Below are positions 21,902 to 32,221 of a stretch of 64,000 nt of DNA, piece by piece (position 1 is the first letter of the stretch; every line of letters starts with the position of its first letter). The position numbers and the translations under genes were made by a program. The stretch is from Candidatus Helarchaeota archaeon (lineage in GTDB: Archaea; Asgardarchaeota; Lokiarchaeia; Helarchaeales; RDOG01), in contig JAHPZH010000003.1 of assembly GCA_019058315.1 (NCBI GenBank), forward strand, positions 364,451 to 428,450, in the 5' to 3' direction. The notes below the pieces were generated by a model. The model saw only the letters and a program-made list of their open reading frames with translations, made no database searches and had not been told where the DNA came from.

Positions 21902-23464
21902 TTATGGAGGTTTTGATGTAGATTTTTTTTCTTCTTCTTTTTCCATAAAATTTTTCATTGATAGATAATAAGAAGTATCAGATTTTAGCTTTTCTTGAAG
22001 AACTTGCTTTTGAAGTGATTTTAAATTTCTAGATCTTTTCCCATTAGATAATTTCTTTAATAATTTTATACCAAATGGCTTTTCTTTTTCAATTTCTTTG
22101 GTAATAATATAACCTTCCTTGATTGCATTTTGAAAGAGTTCTTCACCAATTTTTGTTCTAGTTATTACTGTATTCCAACCTCCAGGTGATCCAATGGACC
22201 CGGATGATATATCAGAGAGCTCATTTGTTAGGTCCACACATAAATGGCATGCGTGGCGAGCATATTTTGTTACATCTTTGATTGGTACCTGAACTGGTTC
22301 TCCCTCACCGCGATGGACAAAGAATTTTCCCTTATCAATATTCATTTTTGTAGCTTCGGTAAGAGAAGTTTGACAATTCTCTTCTACTATTTTAATTAAA
22401 TTTGGATAGGGAAAACTTTCCATACAAAAAATCCCAATAATATATTTAACATTTCCCCATATTTCTGACATTATATTAGATGTGACTTGATATTTTCGCA
22501 TTGCTTGAACTTGGCAGGGAGTTCCTACAAAGGCAATAGATTTTAGTCCAGAGACTTTTATTAGATCTAGTGCTGATAAGTTTGCTGCGACTGAATATAT
22601 TGTACCTGCGGCTTTAATTGCCTCATCTTTATTTCTAATTAAAATTGGTTGTGTATTCCAAGGTTCACCTTCTTTTTGAACTACTCCAATAGCCCCATCA
22701 ATAAGATTCTTATCAAACAGATAAGTCAAAAGTGTTGTTACTATCCCTCCATCTTGGGCTACTTTTTTAATTTTTTGATCTTTGGTTTGAGCAGAAACTA
22801 CAGTTATATTCAAACCAACTGGATCAGCTTTAAGTTCTTTAATAAAATCAACTTTTTTATCATTCATATATCCTTTTAATACATTTATATGTAGAAAAGT
22901 CCTCGGACAACTCGCCCAACAGAGCCCGCAATGAATACATTTATTTTCATCAACAGTGGGTGTTTCTCCCATTGTGATTGCTTTTACTGGGCAAATACTA
23001 AAGCATGCCCCACAACCACAACATAATTCCTTTTCAACAATAGGAGTTATCGGCTCTAATGGCACTTTATATGTTGTGGCAGAAGTTAATTTTAAAAAAA
23101 TATTACCATTTTCTTCAGACATTATAATTTTTGGTTTAAAACTTAATTCAGAGGTCCCTTGTTTTATATCTATTAAATTATCACCAATTAATTCAGCAAG
23201 GGCTTTGTAAACTTCAAATTCTGTAAATTCAGTATTTTCAATAATTTCTGGAACGGTTAAAAATCCATTTTTTTTAATTAATAATAGAATCCTATGTTTA
23301 ATCAACTCAATATCATAAATTTTATCAATTATTGCATCTAATTCTAAAGGAGAAATACGTCCACTATTCAATATTACCTTCTGGTTTTCCAATAAATTTT
23401 TTATCTTAAAACTTATTGCTGCTTCACAAACTGCATTGAATGTTTCTTTATCTACTTTTTCCAT
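21902..23464 (-). CDS. FrhB/FdhB-family F420-binding flavoprotein with N-terminal wHTH and ferredoxin domains
   Basis: CCGCGACFSICP, CIHCGLCWASCP, AQDGGIVT, VGTPCQ, IGIFCME, ACHLCVD, SSGSIGSPGGWNTV; ATG 23464 after GGTGA. Confidence 0.88.
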   Translation of the reverse strand: MEKVDKETFNAVCEAAISFKIKNLLENQKVILNSGRISPLELDAIIDKIYDIELIKHRILLLIKKNGFLTVPEIIENTEFTEFEVYKALAELIGDNLIDIKQGTSELSFKPKIIMSEENGNIFLKLTSATTYKVPLEPITPIVEKELCCGCGACFSICPVKAITMGETPTVDENKCIHCGLCWASCPRTFLHINVLKGYMNDKKVDFIKELKADPVGLNITVVSAQTKDQKIKKVAQDGGIVTTLLTYLFDKNLIDGAIGVVQKEGEPWNTQPILIRNKDEAIKAAGTIYSVAANLSALDLIKVSGLKSIAFVGTPCQVQAMRKYQVTSNIMSEIWGNVKYIIGIFCMESFPYPNLIKIVEENCQTSLTEATKMNIDKGKFFVHRGEGEPVQVPIKDVTKYARHACHLCVDLTNELSDISSGSIGSPGGWNTVITRTKIGEELFQNAIKEGYIITKEIEKEKPFGIKLLKKLSNGKRSRNLKSLQKQVLQEKLKSDTSYYLSMKNFMEKEEEKKSTSKPP

Positions 23465-23487: not shown

Positions 23488-23553
23488 ACCCCTTTGGTTG
23501 CATTCCAAAGAATTTCTGTTAGACTCTAAGTTTTTTTCTAACAGATTTTGGGT
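23488..23553 (-). ncRNA. Candidate SECIS-like structured 3' element of mvhD
   Basis: ACCC-AAAA-UCUGUUAGA-(13 nt A-rich loop)-UCUAACAGA-AAUU-CUUUGG-AAUGCAA-CCAAAG-GGGU, 1 nt after the stop; second copy after hdrA. Confidence 0.7.
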
Positions 23554-23554
23554 T

Positions 23555-23971
23555 TTAAACATTAACAGAACGAATAGGATTAGGACCTAATTTTTGCAGG
23601 TGACCAATCGTATCTTCAACCGCTTGCACAAACCTATTTACTTCAGCCGCACTACATTGGTAAAGGTTGACTCTACCTCCACCTAAACCGGACTTATCGA
23701 GGACTCTTTTGATAAATAGAATTCTTTCGTTAGCCCTGATATTACCATCTTTGAAATCACACTCGCCAAAGTGTCATCCAACAACCATAACAGCATCTGC
23801 ACCAGCTCGAATTGCATGCATTATATGGGCAATATCAATACGTCCAGTGCATCTAAGACGAATTATTTTAACACCAGTATTATATTTCATTCGGCAAGTT
23901 CCAGTTAAATCAGCAGCAGAATAACCTCATTTATCACATGCAAATAGGACCACATTAAATTTGGGATCCAT
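23555..23971 (-). CDS. mvhD: MvhD/VhuD [2Fe-2S] subunit, selenoprotein (Sec15, Sec66), 138 aa
   Basis: Manual translation MDPKFNVVLFACDK-U-GYSAADLTG..RLRCTGRID..VMVVG-U-HFGECDF..CSAAE..LGPNP; TGA at 23927-23929 and 23774-23776 occupy conserved Cys positions. Confidence 0.93.
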
Positions 23972-24010
23972 ATAAATACCTTCTTTTTCATCACCTTTTA
24001 TAAATTTTTA

Positions 24011-24078
24011 ACCCCCTTTGGTTGCATTCCAAAGGATTTTCTATTAGATTAAATCTTTTTCTCTAATAGAATTTGGGT
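24011..24078 (-). ncRNA. Candidate SECIS-like structured 3' element of hdrA
   Basis: ACCC-AAA-UUCUAUUAGA-(13 nt A-rich loop)-UCUAAUAGAA-AAU-CCUUUGG-AAUGCAA-CCAAAGG-GGGU, 2 nt after the stop. Confidence 0.7.
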
Positions 24079-24080
24079 GT

Positions 24081-26072
24081 TTAAGTTTGAATTTCTTCTT
24101 CTAACATAGCTTCAACTTGGTTATCAATTGTCTCGTCCCTATAGTATCTAAGACTTAAGGCACGTGCAGGACAACTCGCAACACAAATTCCACAGCCTTT
24201 ACAAAGCATCTCATCTACTTCAGCGATACCATTTTCATTAATAGTAATTGCACCATAAGGGCAATTTCTTTCGCACGTTCCACAACCAACACATAATTCT
24301 TCGATAACGCTTGGATTAATAAGCTCCAATAGAAACCTTTCAGCTAATACAAAGTCAGTAGCTGCAATAGCTGCGGCTTTAGCAGTTGATACTGAGTATG
24401 GCACATTCTTTGGACCATGAGCAGCACCGCATATATATACTCCGCTGACTTTAGTTTCTTGTGGGCTCAAACATCCATGTATTTCTTTTAGAAAACCACT
24501 AGGTGCTTTATCAAGTCCTAAAATATCCATTATTTTCTTTGTAGAACTTGCAGGAACCATCGCCACCGATAAAACCACAAGGTCAAATTCTTCTTTAATT
24601 ACTTTTCCTTGAAGTGTATCCTCGCCTCGTAATATAAGATTCTTTGTCTCTGGATCTTCTTTAACTACTCCAATTTTTCCACGAATGAACCGTATATCGG
24701 GATTTTGTCCGCGTATTCTTGAATAATATTCTTCTTGATCTTTGTCAGCAGTTCTTATATCAATGTAGAAGATTGAAAGGTCCATATTATCAAATTCTTG
24801 CATTAGTAATTGAGCATTTTTAATTGCAACCATACAGCAGACACCACCTGAACAATAAGCGTTATCTTTTAGATTTCGTGATCCAACACATTGTATCATT
24901 GCTACTTTTTTTGGAACCTTACCATCACTCGGTCTTGTTATATGCCCACCAGTAGGCCCTGTCGGGCTTAACATGCGCTCAAGTTCAATTTGGGTAACAA
25001 CATTTAGATATTTACCATATCCATATTCGCCAGTTGGATCATATATATCAAATCCCGTAGCTATTATAATTGCGCCGACGTCCAATTCAATTTCTTCAGG
25101 CTCTTGTTCGTATTTTATTGCTCCTGCGAGACAATTTTTTTCACATTGTTTACAATTAATACAGTATTCTTTTGAAATATATGCAACTTTTGGGACTGCT
25201 TGGGGAAATAATATGTTGATTGCCTTTCTAGTACCTAAACCATAATTAAATTCGTTTGGGATATTTATCGGACAAACTTCCATACATCTACCACAGCCCG
25301 TGCAGACATTTTCATCAACGAATTTGGCATTTTTCTTAATTTTAACCTTAAATTGTCCTGCAGTTCCTGAAATATCCTCAACTTCAGAATAAGTAAGTAT
25401 TTGAACATTAGGATGTTTTGCTACTTCGACCATTTTAGGGGCCAATATTCAGATTGCACAATCATCTGTAGGAAATACTCGATCTAATTGTGCCATTTTT
25501 CCTCCAATACTTGGGGATGACTCAATAAGATAAACGGGAGTTCCAGTATTAGCAACACCTAAAGCGGCTGAGATACCACCAATTCCACCACCAATGACCA
25601 TCACCGATTTATATACATCCATTTCTTTTATTGGAACATCTTCCATTTGATTTGCTCTTGCAATACCGCCTTTCATTAATTGGATAGCTTTTTCAGTAGC
25701 AGCTTTAGGATCCTTCGAATGAACAAATGATACTTGTTCTCGTAAGTTAACCATTTCAAAGAAGTATTTACTTATACCAGCAGATTCAAGAAGGGCTCTA
25801 TAAGTCGGTTCATGAATTTTTGGGGTTCATGCACCAACAACAACTCGGTTAAGTCCGAGTTTTTCAATATCTTCCTTAATCATATTTTGTGGAGTAGAAC
25901 TACACATAAATGCGGCTGTTTTAGATAGAACTACGTTTGGTTCGTTTTCTAAAGCTTTAGCGACTTTCTCAACGTCCACCACACCACCGATGTTTACGCC
26001 TCAAAAGCAGACATAAACACCTATCTTTATCGAACTTTCAATATTTTTTCCAATGCTGTTTTCATCTTGCAT
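24081..26072 (-). CDS. hdrA: Heterodisulfide reductase subunit A, selenoprotein (Sec24, Sec82, Sec208), 663 aa
   Basis: One frame from ATG 26072: IGVYVCF-U-GVNIGG (TGA 26001-26003), VVVGA-U-TPKIHE (25827-25829), TDDCAI-U-ILAPKM (25449-25451); GGGIGG FAD motif, IQCVGSR, ferredoxin motifs. Joins ORF-track pieces 25449..25754 and 24081..25445. Confidence 0.93.
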
Positions 26073-26128: not shown

Positions 26129-26299
26129 TTAATGTCCAATTAAAGCTCGTTTTGCTCTAAAAATAACTTTATTTCTATCACAATTTTCTTCTTCAGCTAT
26201 AGTTATTAGCAATTTCAACGTCTTACCGCCCTTGAGATCAAGAGCTGTCATAATTTCTTTAGCAAAATCGCGAATTTTTGGATCTACTTTTTTGGCCAT
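26129..26299 (-). CDS. Small basic hypothetical protein (56 aa) upstream of hdrA
   Basis: Manual: MAKKVDPKIRDFAKEIMTALDLKGGKTLKLLITIAEEENCDRNKVIFRAKRALIGH; co-oriented within the gene run. Confidence 0.6.
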   Translation of the reverse strand: MAKKVDPKIRDFAKEIMTALDLKGGKTLKLLITIAEEENCDRNKVIFRAKRALIGH

Positions 26300-26410: not shown

Positions 26411-27571
26411 TTATGAAATATTTTTAGAAACAGTATTTTGATTATTATCTTCTATTTTAAGTTGTAACATTGTAATATCGGGATTATATTTATAATTGAC
26501 TGTTATATCTTGATTAGAATCCCATTTAATCTTTCCTAACATGTTAGGTGGTAGTTCAAAGAATTCAGATTGAATCCCACTAACTTGTATAGTAACTCCT
26601 TCGAAATTATTTTTAGTTTTATTTTTCAAAGTAATTTTTATGCTATTTCCGTCAATTTCCTTTTTTACAAGTTCAATTTGATCGGGGGTTATTATTTTAC
26701 CCAAAGCATTACTCTTTTCTCCTACAATAGGACTAAATAAGTCCGGTTCGGTTACTTTACCTTCGATGATATTTATAGGGATTGTAAATTGGGTTTTTTC
26801 ACCTTTAAAACTGGTTGCCTCTATCTTTAAATACCAGCTATTTTGGTCCCCAACTCTATGATTTACTCCTAGACTGACTTGTGTTTCCCATAGATAGTTA
26901 TGAGAAGGTTCTGCATCAGTTGGGATCTTTAAATTAAGCTTTCCATTCGTAGGGGGATTTTTAATATTGGATTTGGCTTTTTGAATTGGAGGTTTCTTTT
27001 TATTATGAACACATTGCTTCCAGAACTCAGGGCATTGGCAAATTGTGTTAATATCTTGGATTAATTCAACGTTAAGTTCCTTATAATTTTCCAAAGTATA
27101 TTCCAAATCTATATTTTCATCAGGCATAAAAGTATCTTTAGATATACTAATTGCTACCCCTTTTATCTTTACATCAATAGGATGAGAGGACATACGTTCT
27201 GTAGCTGTTGCTTTAATAAATATTGATTTATCGCTAAAATAATTCTCTTCCTGTTTTGTTTTATTATTGATTAGGGACAGGTTTGCTCTTATAAAATAGG
27301 TAATACGTGAGTCAATGCTTGGCACTACACGGCGACTGATAGGTATGCTTCTTAATCTTTTATAAGTACCATTTTCAAAAATACCTTTATAAAAAATATC
27401 ATTTTTTGATATAATCAGCTCTTTCGCACAAGGTCGTTTAATATATAAACGTACACCGCCCCATGTAATGTCTATCTGTTCTTCTTCAAGTTCGTTCATA
27501 TTAAATTTAGACGAAACTGTAGTGGGAATTCCGACTTTCGCAATTTTTTCTGTTTCGAGATTTACTAACAT
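26411..27571 (-). CDS. Arrestin-fold (N+C) protein with C-terminal shared beta domain
   Basis: GTYKRLRSIPISRRVVPS..ITYFIRANL; ISISKDTFMPDENIDL..LKIPTDAEPS..WYLKIE..IPINI arrestin-like patterns; C-terminal IQSEFFE domain. Confidence 0.65.
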   Translation of the reverse strand: MLVNLETEKIAKVGIPTTVSSKFNMNELEEEQIDITWGGVRLYIKRPCAKELIISKNDIFYKGIFENGTYKRLRSIPISRRVVPSIDSRITYFIRANLSLINNKTKQEENYFSDKSIFIKATATERMSSHPIDVKIKGVAISISKDTFMPDENIDLEYTLENYKELNVELIQDINTICQCPEFWKQCVHNKKKPPIQKAKSNIKNPPTNGKLNLKIPTDAEPSHNYLWETQVSLGVNHRVGDQNSWYLKIEATSFKGEKTQFTIPINIIEGKVTEPDLFSPIVGEKSNALGKIITPDQIELVKKEIDGNSIKITLKNKTKNNFEGVTIQVSGIQSEFFELPPNMLGKIKWDSNQDITVNYKYNPDITMLQLKIEDNNQNTVSKNIS

Positions 27572-27598
27572 ATAAATTTCACATAAAAAAAAGGAATT

Positions 27599-28510
27599 TT
27601 ATTCTTGATGTGCTCTAACGACTAAATCTGCAAATAGTTCCATGTCAACGAGTAGAGTTTTTATTTGATCTTTAGAAGCACTGTCCAAATCCTTAGGTCT
27701 CATTAAAAGAACGCTTAAAATGTACTTGAAAATATATATTTCAATTTCTTTATCAGCTTCTTTTGATTCACCTTTAAAATAAACGGAATCTGCATTAAAG
27801 AAATTTTCTCGCATCGTATTACAAGAACTAATGAAATCTCTAAGATCAGCTCTTAATTGTAAACCAGCAGAAATTCCAGGAACATTATGAACTATTACAT
27901 TACCATTTATGTCGCTAATTATGATTTTTGCTTTTATTTCAGATAATTGCTTTTCTGCATTTTCTACATGTGATTGTAGATCTTTATAATTTGCGACAAG
28001 TAAATCCCGAAAAACTATAGATAACTTCTCTTGTTCATAGATTGAGGTAATTCGTTCTTCTGGGTTCCAATTTTCAAAAATCTTTGGGAAAATTCCTTTT
28101 GCCTTTTGTAAATTTGTATCTAGAAGTTCTTTTTGGTAGCCTTGAGCATCATATTTATGATAGAAAATTAAAACGGTAGGTTTAATATTTAAATCATCAA
28201 ATGCTTTCTTTAGTTTCTTAAAGTAATCTACTGCTGTGTCAAATTTATCTGGGTCATGTAAATCGATAATTGGGATTAAAACATCAGTTTCCTTAAAGAT
28301 TTCAGGTTTAGCTAAGTAATCTGCTCTGAATTGATCTTGTCCTCCAAAATCGAAGAAACTAACATTTAGTCCGAGATATGGATGAGATCTAACTTCATAC
28401 ATTACAGTAGGTCGAAATGATTTTGTATCTTCTGGACTTTTTGATGCGAATGTTGTTGCGTATATACTTGTCTTTCCACAACCACTTATTCCTACAAGCG
28501 ATATTTTCAT
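27599..28510 (-). CDS. Rag/Gtr-like small GTPase with C-terminal roadblock-like domain
   Basis: GISGCGKTS, RPT switch I, DFGGQ, HKYD G4 (Rag-type His); C-terminal IIISDINGNVIV. Confidence 0.8.
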   Translation of the reverse strand: MKISLVGISGCGKTSIYATTFASKSPEDTKSFRPTVMYEVRSHPYLGLNVSFFDFGGQDQFRADYLAKPEIFKETDVLIPIIDLHDPDKFDTAVDYFKKLKKAFDDLNIKPTVLIFYHKYDAQGYQKELLDTNLQKAKGIFPKIFENWNPEERITSIYEQEKLSIVFRDLLVANYKDLQSHVENAEKQLSEIKAKIIISDINGNVIVHNVPGISAGLQLRADLRDFISSCNTMRENFFNADSVYFKGESKEADKEIEIYIFKYILSVLLMRPKDLDSASKDQIKTLLVDMELFADLVVRAHQE

Positions 28511-30325: not shown

Positions 30326-32221
30326 TTAGTAAGCTCCTTCTGCTTTTTTTATGTCTAATCTTAGAATGTCGGTATTTGAGATAATTCCTAGAATTTCATT
30401 TGGATTCTCTTCGGAAGCAATTACAAGATAGCTAATATCCTTCGTTATCATCATTCTATTAGCCTCATTTATTTTGGTTTTTGGGCTAATAGTCACAAGA
30501 GGCGAGCTCATTATCTCATTCACTTTTGTGGAACGTGGATCCTTGCCTTTCTCTATAATTTCTCTCATAATATCCCTTTCTGTTATAATTCCAACAGATT
30601 TCCCGTTATCTGTTATTAAAACACTCCCTATTTTCTTTTCAAACAGTACGTCTAATAAGGTTGCAATATTTTCATCTAGGGGTAATTTCACAACGTCGCT
30701 AATCATTATTTCTTCAACCATTTTTTCTCCTAAGTTTCTTATTTCAACAAAATTTGTTTCTTCTTCTGTTTCTAATCGTTGGGAGAGGTATGCGTTAATT
30801 ATATCGTTATGTCTTATAATTCCAGCTAATTGACCATCATCTAAGACTGGCAACTTTTTCACATCGTATTGAATAACCATCATAGCTGCCTTACGTATAT
30901 TGTCATTAATATTAAGAACTCGAATAGGCGAAGTCATAATGTCTTTACATTGTATTTTACTGGGATCTGCAGAACGGCGAAGCAGACAACTTCTTATGAC
31001 CTTTCGAAGAATATCACGGTTTGTAATAATACCTATCGGTTTTTCGCCTAATGTGACTAATAAATAATCACTTTTTTTAGAATTCATTAATGAAACAGCA
31101 TCACTAATCATTGCAGAGTAAGAAATAGTTAATGGCTCTTTATCCATAAATTCTTTAACTAAAATTTTTTCAAAGAATGATTCTTCTTTCGGAATGAGTT
31201 GTTTTGGTTGGATCTCTTTCACAAGTAATTTCCGATCAGGACCACTTATCTCAAAAATATAGTGACTATTTAAATCACTTATTGGATATTGAAAAACCAA
31301 ATCTTCACCTGCAAACCAAGTATCTATATTAGTTTCCCAATGACTTGTCTCAAAAAATTCTTGAACTTGTGAGATTTCTATGCTAATATTGAATAAATCT
31401 TTTAGGCTTACATTTTTTACAGCAATTTTAATTTTTTTTCGGTTTTCAATTAATTCAAGTTTAGTAAACATTGCAATTCTCTTAAAATATTCAGATTTAT
31501 CTTCAGTTTCAGCAATATTTGAAATCTCAAATTGTCTTGGAGTAGATGGGGGTGAAGATCTTGAAATATCATGAAATAATAAATATGCTAATTTTTCATT
31601 TTTCTTTGTAGTAGCACTAGCAAGCGAATTTATAGCATCTGGAGAAATTTGTGGCAATAAAGTCTTGAAAATATTATGTAAATCTTTTTCTATGGCTTTT
31701 CCTTCCTCAATTGTAGTGCGATCTTTTTCCGACTTTACCACTTTATAAATTGCGTGCTCTTTTTCGATCAAAATATAAAGTCTATCAGCAAGTGCTTTAA
31801 TTTTTGAATATAATGACACAAGTAGATCAGATCCTAAAAAAGAATAATCTTTAGGTAAACTCAACATTAAAACATAGGTTTCAGGAGTTTTTTCATCCAT
31901 CCCAGAACGTTCTTTTTTTCTATATGATACACCAGCAAATTTCATTGCTAAATAGATACGATCTCCAAATTCTAAATCGACATGATCCAAATCTTCTTGG
32001 GATTCAGTATCTAAAAACCAAATTGAGTGGATTTTGATAATTCTCTCTTGATTTTTATCATTTTTCAAATATTCTGGATAAGTATACAAAGTTAAATGAC
32101 CTCTAGCCTCATCGAAGAAACAAAGAAATATTTCATAAAGTGATTTATCCCGACTAATAATCGGAGTTCTTGATTCTATATCATTATTTTCAATTGGAGA
32201 TTCTTTTCTATTTTGAAACAA
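30326..32221 (-). CDS. Longin/uDENN-like plus shared beta domain plus four CBS domains
   Basis: N-terminal IFLCFFDEARGHLTLYTYP; central VQEFFE..WETNI; four CBS motifs (GIITNRD, GIIRHND, GIITERD, GIISNTD). Confidence 0.75.
   Translation of the reverse strand: MFQNRKESPIENNDIESRTPIISRDKSLYEIFLCFFDEARGHLTLYTYPEYLKNDKNQERIIKIHSIWFLDTESQEDLDHVDLEFGDRIYLAMKFAGVSYRKKERSGMDEKTPETYVLMLSLPKDYSFLGSDLLVSLYSKIKALADRLYILIEKEHAIYKVVKSEKDRTTIEEGKAIEKDLHNIFKTLLPQISPDAINSLASATTKKNEKLAYLLFHDISRSSPPSTPRQFEISNIAETEDKSEYFKRIAMFTKLELIENRKKIKIAVKNVSLKDLFNISIEISQVQEFFETSHWETNIDTWFAGEDLVFQYPISDLNSHYIFEISGPDRKLLVKEIQPKQLIPKEESFFEKILVKEFMDKEPLTISYSAMISDAVSLMNSKKSDYLLVTLGEKPIGIITNRDILRKVIRSCLLRRSADPSKIQCKDIMTSPIRVLNINDNIRKAAMMVIQYDVKKLPVLDDGQLAGIIRHNDIINAYLSQRLETEEETNFVEIRNLGEKMVEEIMISDVVKLPLDENIATLLDVLFEKKIGSVLITDNGKSVGIITERDIMREIIEKGKDPRSTKVNEIMSSPLVTISPKTKINEANRMMITKDISYLVIASEENPNEILGIISNTDILRLDIKKAEGAY

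Follow-up and report, generated by a model that had tools for sequence, protein, structure and literature searches.

A three-way-junction lokiSECIS variant without the AUGA..GA core follows each of two selenoprotein genes, hdrA and mvhD, in a Helarchaeales genome

Introduction

For the SECIS elements of Lokiarchaeota (lokiSECIS), Mariotti et al. 2016 (PMC4989117) describe a core that is always AUGA and, in Loki, a single element shared by hdrA and vhuD. The Asgard model of Huang et al. 2024 (PMC11227280) requires 5′-GA_[G/A]A-3′; an eSECIS-like structure is reported there for 85% of Asgard selenoprotein genes, with about 15% lacking it, and it is considered that further patterns may exist. By the criteria for lokiSECIS and for the Asgard eSECIS-like type I, the upper stem measures about 9 bp (7-15 bp, with at most two mismatches), and the loop has 8-20 nt (11 nt in Loki), with adenines coming first. 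All published Asgard SECIS searches are anchored on GA_[G/A]A; a conserved locus without this core provides a concrete example of a further pattern.

Here we describe such a locus in a 64,000-nt stretch of DNA (the window, with positions counted from its first nucleotide), which corresponds to C11:364451-428450 of G000, a 5.8-Mb assembly of 30% G+C and 94% completeness. The elements following hdrA and mvhD are best described as lokiSECIS three-way junctions without the GA quartet, duplicated so that there is one per cistron, and not as a new class.

Results

The hdrA-mvhD operon and the selenocysteine machinery

The operon under study (Table 1) encodes HdrA, in which Pfam identifies Fer4 and FAD_oxidored domains, MvhD, which matches FlpD at 3e-40, and an FrhB/FdhB-like protein. 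All five UGA sites (three in HdrA and two in MvhD) align with Cys in paralogues from G000, and mvhD homologues with two TGA codons at matching places are present in more than 100 Lokiarchaeia genomes. The same gene order is seen in L057-L061, L068 and L070. Beyond the FrhB/FdhB-like gene lies a gene in convergent orientation, so that there is no space for another 3′ UTR element.

Upstream of hdrA, a 56-aa ORF with no Pfam match (window 26129-26299, minus strand) has kept its place in L057-L061, where it is 56-58 aa long. Further upstream, in window 26411-28510 of the minus strand, a 303-aa ORF at 27599-28510 matches the 303-aa Arf/Roc-type small GTPase gene of the relatives.

A genome devoid of SelB and tRNA-Sec, which the preliminary description named as evidence against a SECIS, is not what we found: G000 has tRNA-Sec, an EFSec-like gene, SepSecS and a Sec-containing SelD. 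In the cluster at C5:124363-127232, the EFSec/SelB-like gene (at about 124.4-125.8 kb), SepSecS and tRNA-Sec are adjacent and are followed by an AIR-synthase-like gene.

Table 1. Genes and RNA elements of the operon and of the rest of G000. Positions are those of the window unless a contig (C) is named.
Feature	Position	Strand	Remarks
hdrA (heterodisulfide reductase subunit A-like)	24081..26072	-	TAA 24083-24081; putative start 26072, the first ATG past the upstream stop
hdrA in-frame UGA, three	26003-26001, 25829-25827, 25451-25449	-	from translation
mvhD/vhuD (FlpD family)	23555..23971	-	TAA 23557-23555
mvhD in-frame UGA, two	23929-23927, 23776-23774	-	from translation
FrhB/FdhB-like iron-sulfur flavoprotein, third operon gene	21902..23464	-	Pfam; no in-frame UGA
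Element copy 1, 3′ of hdrA	24078-24011	-	68 nt; P2 of 10 bp
Copy 1 P1	24078-24075 with 24014-24011	-	ACCC/GGGU
Copy 1 J12	24074-24072	-	AAA
Copy 1 P2	24071-24062 with 24048-24039	-	10 bp, no mismatches
Copy 1 apical loop	24061-24049	-	GAAAAAGAUUUAA; 13 nt, opens GAAAAA
Copy 1 J23	24038-24036	-	AAU
Copy 1 P3	24035-24029 with 24021-24015	-	loop AAUGCAA, 24028-24022
Element copy 2, 3′ of mvhD	23553-23488	-	66 nt; P2 of 9 bp
Copy 2 P1	23553-23550 with 23491-23488	-	ACCC/GGGU, only 4 bp
Copy 2 J12	23549-23546	-	AAAA
Copy 2 P2	23545-23537 with 23523-23515	-	9 bp, no mismatches
Copy 2 apical loop	23536-23524	-	AAAAAACUUAGAG; 13 nt, opens AAAAAA
Copy 2 J23	23514-23511	-	AAUU
Copy 2 P3	23510-23505 with 23497-23492	-	loop AAUGCAA, 23504-23498
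tRNA-Sec	C5:127141-127232		
SelD	C11:696903-697751		one in-frame TGA (Sec-containing); away from the C5 cluster
Other Sec-containing hdrA/mvhD of G000	C5:663.8-666.2 kb, C11:675.3-675.8 kb, C3:41.5-43.6 kb		3′ elements with the lokiSECIS signature
Canonical three-way-junction elements of G000	C5:666161-666233 (3′ of mvhD), C11:675792-675859, C5:1207626-1207694		
Further candidate selenoproteins with canonical SECIS	C3:494749-495411, C10:42167-42442, C2:186051-186386, C3:786452-786865	-, -, -, +	

Two elements without the AUGA..GA core

As reported in the preliminary description, an element of about 67 nt (68 and 66 nt in our delimitation) begins 1-2 nt after the TAA of both hdrA and mvhD, and the sequence together with RNAfold bears out the ACCC/GGGU stem, the 9-10 bp helix with a compensatory change, the 13-nt A-rich loop and the hairpin CUUUGG-AAUGCAA-CCAAAG listed there. 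RNAfold yields the same three-way junction for copy 1 (-22.1 kcal/mol, z -4.7) and copy 2 (-19.3 kcal/mol, z -4.6), and none of 200 shuffles folded as well. In the pairwise alignment the copies share 87-90% column identity; one compensatory change, A-U / G-C, distinguishes their P2 helices (columns 15/39), and P3 reads C(C)UUUGG-AAUGCAA-CCAAAG(G) in both. Strain variants were seen in short contigs of four sediment runs, for instance A in place of U at position 24026, in the P3 loop.

The four bases 5′ of P2 are AAAU or AAAA, and those 3′ of it are AAAU or AAUU. Both copies are devoid of UGA, there is no G in any junction strand, and the AUGA (at minimum GA) core expected before the upper stem is missing from both. 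After the upper stem both have AA, a variant of the 3′ core that the Huang et al. model (PMC11227280) allows. No consistent alternative pairing came out of a manual search for a K-turn in some other register, either in the twin elements or in relatives with an AUGC_AA core (see below). In K-turns, no position is more conserved than the G of the first sheared pair (1b), and without it K-turn folding and L7Ae-type binding are usually lost.

The window contains exactly two occurrences of the 19-nt P3 motif, as compared to 0.01 expected. Two covariance models, R1 built from the two window copies and R2 from seven related sequences, retrieved these two copies only from the whole 5.8-Mb genome, with E-values of 1e-15 to 1e-19, so that the preliminary statement that the element is found nowhere else in the window can be extended to the genome; in 40 relatives R1 gave no significant match. 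A stable, hairpin-rich element located just past stop codons could also be a transcription terminator, or a generic repeat of the REP or MITE kind, that follows both genes by chance. Two copies in 5.8 Mb exclude a dispersed repeat, and the lack of a T run after either copy, along with a ribosome-binding site and the next cistron within 20-40 nt, argues against a terminator; indeed, the AGGUGA ribosome-binding site of the FrhB/FdhB-like gene is situated directly 3′ of copy 2. As orthologous elements also occupy the same place in relatives, we consider this explanation effectively refuted by copy number and synteny. Copies behind genes that do not code for selenoproteins, which the preliminary description had singled out as adverse, were not encountered, both copies being located behind Sec genes.

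The expectation that models of the twin elements would also match behind selD, vhuU and other UGA-containing genes failed: R1 and R2 find none of them. The UGA genes that were read, including a VhuU-like gene, are followed by [A/G/U]UGA..GA cores. Searched against Rfam, the window elements gave no match, either at the gathering score or with E<=10, and neither did canonical lokiSECIS controls from G000; Rfam therefore has no model of such elements, and its negative result is uninformative.

The junction and side hairpin in canonical lokiSECIS elements

The other Sec-containing hdrA and mvhD genes of G000 are followed by elements with [A/U]UGA, a 9-bp stem, an 11-nt A-rich loop and GA, and this GA precedes a small hairpin with a loop of (U/C)GCAA or AUGCAA. 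A lower helix of 6-7 bp encloses the C5 and C11 elements, and the C3 element has a short, uncertain one. The same P1/P2/P3 layout with a canonical core is present 3′ of several other candidate Sec genes, among them those for a VhuU-like C-terminal peptide and for a DsbA-like protein with UPWC. The four further candidate selenoproteins with canonical SECIS (Table 1) are one DsbA-like protein that contains UPWC, one small membrane protein that contains UPLC, and a pair of small single-U proteins. A descriptor scan for three-way junctions was noisy at 30% G+C, and its extra matches on C8, C9 and C3 fell inside ordinary coding regions without UGA.

Downstream regions of two-TGA vhuD genes from 29 relatives' genomes nearly all display the order P1, AUGA, P2, GA, P3, so that the typical Lokiarchaeia vhuD element is composed of P1, AUGA, a 9-bp P2, an 11-nt A loop, GA and P3. 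In the vhuD set of family f4 (17 non-redundant elements; loci L036-L055), the 5′ core is ATGA in 17/17 cases and the 3′ core is GA in 15/17 and AA in the other two. Its P3 is a hairpin of 3-5 bp between the 3′ GA and the 3′ strand of P1, with a GNRA-like YGCRA loop in most members, and its P1 covaries (ACUCCC/GGGAGU, ACCCCU/AGGGGU, UCCCUA/UAGGGA, AACACCU/AGGUGUU, CUCUCUC/GGGAGAG). In this family one element, 3′ of vhuD, is available for both hdrA and vhuD.

The idea that a junction and a second hairpin replaced the K-turn core in the window thus has to be abandoned, since P1, P2 and P3 occur together with AUGA..GA both in G000 and in 17/17 f4 vhuD elements: they accompany the core as an ancestral part of the SECIS, and do not substitute for it. 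Judging from these comparisons, canonical lokiSECIS elements that follow hdrA/vhuD, as well as those of several other G000 Sec genes, are predicted three-way junctions with a GNRA-like side hairpin. The main texts of PMC4989117, of PMC11227280 and of a May 2026 review speak of neither the junction nor the side hairpin.

In many Loki vhuD/hdrA genes (L036, L040, L041 and others, as well as G000 C3:41496-41560), the AUGA core takes its UGA from the stop codon, and the last codons of these genes contain the 5′ strand of P1.

A series of cores in related Helarchaeales

In five loci of the same order, all from species-representative genomes, hdrA and mvhD each have their own element, in agreement with the preliminary view that one copy per cistron is a real arrangement. 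The hdrA-proximal elements of this order start with ACAC.. or ACAU.. right after the stop codon and have a P3 loop of the form NNN(U/A)GC(A/G)A, examples being AAAUGCAA, AUAAGCAA and GAAAGCGA. Their core is AUGA_GA in L028, L029 and L070, AUGA_AA in L068, and AUGC_AA in L027, L030/L067, L031 and L069. The contrast between AUGA_AA and AUGC_AA recurs at orthologous elements of another mvhD paralogue (G003 vs G005).

A protein search with a C-terminal fragment of HdrA identified three lineages closer to the window, L056 (90% identical), L057/L058 (86%) and L059-61 (84%); like all relatives considered here, they are represented by metagenomic contigs. A scan of metagenome contigs for MvhD relatives gave no match. 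In all three lineages hdrA is followed by the core-less type, with P1 ACACCC/GGGUGU, J12 AAA(U), an identical P2 and J23 (A/G)(A/U)U, and the 3′ core position in the close relatives reads AA, AG or GA. Among the core-less relatives P3 has undergone double changes (CUUUUAG/CUAAAAG, CAUUUGG/CCAAAUG). In the seven-sequence alignment A4, a small sample of related sequences, 96% of cells are paired, four pairs are changed on both sides, and the covariation score was reached by 0/500 shuffles. All instances of the core-less type (8/8) are located behind a Sec-containing hdrA or mvhD.

As in the window, L057/L058 have a second core-less copy 3′ of mvhD, and L059-61 have kept a canonical AUGA..GA element at that position, which in L059 presumably represents the earlier state. 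The same location, the ACAC.. start of P1 and the P3 loop motif indicate that the window elements share descent with accepted lokiSECIS members.

The middle HdrA site (..VVGAU.., window 25829-25827) holds Sec in the window and L057 and Cys in L056 and L059, a recent Cys/Sec switch among close relatives.

Absence of a canonical element from the operon

A canonical SECIS for hdrA and mvhD would be at odds with a role of the twin elements in recoding, as the preliminary description pointed out; none is present in the operon, and a pattern scan revealed no AUGA..GA element within about 10 kb on either side of it. The covariance model of canonical elements (R3), run with filters off over 15-32 kb of the window, yielded no canonical SECIS; the twin copies were its sole non-coding matches, with scores of 16.7 and 16.6 bits in alignments that skip the AUGA columns as deletions. 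With filters on, in the whole-genome search, R3 missed two canonical elements of G000, and is for that reason an insensitive detector. Its best match in the window (31127-31204, minus strand) lies inside a 631-aa ORF without UGA, and was dismissed as a spurious chance match. No AUGA..GA element was seen in those parts of the L057/L058 contigs that were read.

Discussion

Do the core-less elements direct selenocysteine insertion?

We favor the reading in which the window elements are a functional SECIS variant of the Lokiarchaeota (eukaryote-like) lineage, with one element per cistron, and estimate its probability, from sequence comparison, at roughly 0.6. The preliminary proposal of a SECIS-related element that keeps the helix and the apical As and lacks AUGA..GA is supported to this extent. 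Copy 1 would direct UGA-to-Sec recoding at the three hdrA sites, 1.4-1.9 kb upstream, and copy 2 at the two mvhD sites, 0.2-0.4 kb upstream. The parts retained in common with canonical elements would be the lower helix P1, a P2 of 9-10 bp with an 11-13 nt loop that opens in a run of As, and the small hairpin P3 with a loop ending in (U/A)GC(A/G)A. As there is no linker between P3 and P1, these two can stack, with P2 branching off. Where canonical relatives have tandem sheared G.A/A.G pairs at the P2 base, the window elements would have A.A (or A.U) appositions, and a fixed junction geometry might then present P2 and its apical As at the angle which a kink-turn otherwise gives; the AAA of J12, which is invariant, is in a good position to contact the G-C-rich P1 and could dock in its minor groove. 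An archaeal SECIS reader, be it EFSec, the ribosome or an accessory protein, would still accept such an element, recognizing the apical As, the length of P2 and perhaps the GNRA-like P3 loop. We infer that the element may suffice for Sec insertion and that its other parts may compensate for the lost core. Points that speak against this reading are the missing G of the first sheared pair, the short P1 of the mvhD copy, and the fact that all relatives are metagenomic contigs.

The window and L057/L058 retain all five Sec codons, including a third HdrA Sec at the position where L056 and L059 have Cys. Retention of Sec codons with no canonical SECIS is expected if the core-less element suffices, and is hard to reconcile with decay, although the window and L057 may be sisters, as judged from the third Sec found in both, in which case Sec retention may represent one event, not two. 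Decay would mean that the core was lost, that Sec insertion is failing, and that hdrA and mvhD are turning into pseudogenes while a Cys-type or another Sec-type paralogue takes over. The missing G.A core would fit such a course, as would the many hdrA/mvhD paralogues of G000, some with canonical SECIS, which include at least 12 FlpD-like matches; the self-BLAST screen for selenoprotein genes was dominated by repeats and was used only to find these paralogues. Against it, the reading frames remain open over 2 kb in spite of the AT-rich genome, frames, Sec codons and element are kept in four lineages at 10-16% protein divergence, and the compensatory changes in P2 and P3 are indicative of selection on the RNA. 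We regard a decaying locus as highly improbable.

A stronger competitor, albeit an unlikely one in our judgment, is that the SECIS-derived element is insufficient on its own and has acquired another job, such as mRNA stabilization, a processing site, or translational coupling or pausing, with recoding provided by some other signal. In L059-61 the core-less element after hdrA lies beside a canonical one after mvhD, and in family f4 a single element after vhuD serves both genes, so that the hdrA-proximal copy could be dispensable for recoding; its coexistence with the canonical element in L059 means that its original role could be other than Sec insertion. The drift of the core between families, from AUGA_GA and AUGA_AA to AUGC_AA and AAAU_AA, is also compatible with such a change of role. 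Yet the twin copies are the only SECIS candidates of the window operon, and the L057/L058 parts that were read show no other candidate, with all five Sec codons kept in both; the SECIS-specific A-rich loop and 9-10 bp P2 are conserved as strictly as P1 and P3; and we know of no other recoding signal in archaea.

A more far-reaching version of the recoding hypothesis may be put forward tentatively, and is on balance rather doubtful: that SECIS recognition in Asgard archaea in general needs no G.A/A.G quartet, and that its determinant is the three-way junction, with P1 stacked on P3 and a GNRA-like P3 loop, which presents a 9-10 bp helix and apical adenines. If this were true, the Helarchaeales family of the window would be a natural “core-less” mutant proving it, and the K-turn core of eukaryotes would have become obligatory only later, for example with SBP2.

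Implications

AUGA_GA, AUGA_AA, AUGC_AA and AAAU_AA form an evolutionary series within one order, and the GNRA-like side hairpin is a pointer to what else the archaeal SECIS reader might recognize. Should the core-less form prove active, it would have a bearing on the archaea-to-eukaryote SECIS transition that has been proposed, for which the AUGA/GA core is the main argument. Selenoprotein genes missed by motif-anchored searches should come within reach of covariance models in which P1 and P3 are included.

Comparison with known systems

The SECIS of Methanococcales and Methanopyrus are likewise archaeal 3′ UTR elements of hdrA/vhuD, but are built of a GAA_A bulge, a G+C-rich lower stem of 10 bp and an upper stem of three G-C pairs, all of which are absent from the window, where the stems are A+U-rich. 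With respect to the K-turn and k-junction (Wang et al. 2014, as cited in PMC11227280), the canonical relatives have a K-turn sequence layout elaborated into a three-way junction, whereas the window copies, with A at both G positions, fail the sequence definition of the K-turn (tandem sheared G.A and A.G pairs with a 3-nt bulge).

Eukaryotic SECIS, consisting of helix I, an internal loop, the AUGA/GA quartet, helix II and apical AA, share with the window elements the 3′ UTR location and the order of lower helix, upper helix and apical As. The window elements differ in the lack of a G.A quartet, in a shorter upper helix, and in the P3 hairpin on the 3′ side of the internal loop, which turns it into a three-way junction.

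The closest resemblance is to lokiSECIS and the Asgard eSECIS-like type I. The window copies depart from these in having neither AUGA nor GA 5′ of the stem, in the presence of two elements as opposed to one shared element, and in a loop of 13 nt and not 11 nt. They agree with them in their placement in the 3′ UTR near the hdrA/vhuD stop, in a stem of roughly 9 bp, and in the 11-13 nt loop that opens with about five As and, in the mvhD copy, ends in AG. Moreover, they are orthologous in position to the canonical elements of their relatives, with which they have P1 and P3 in common.
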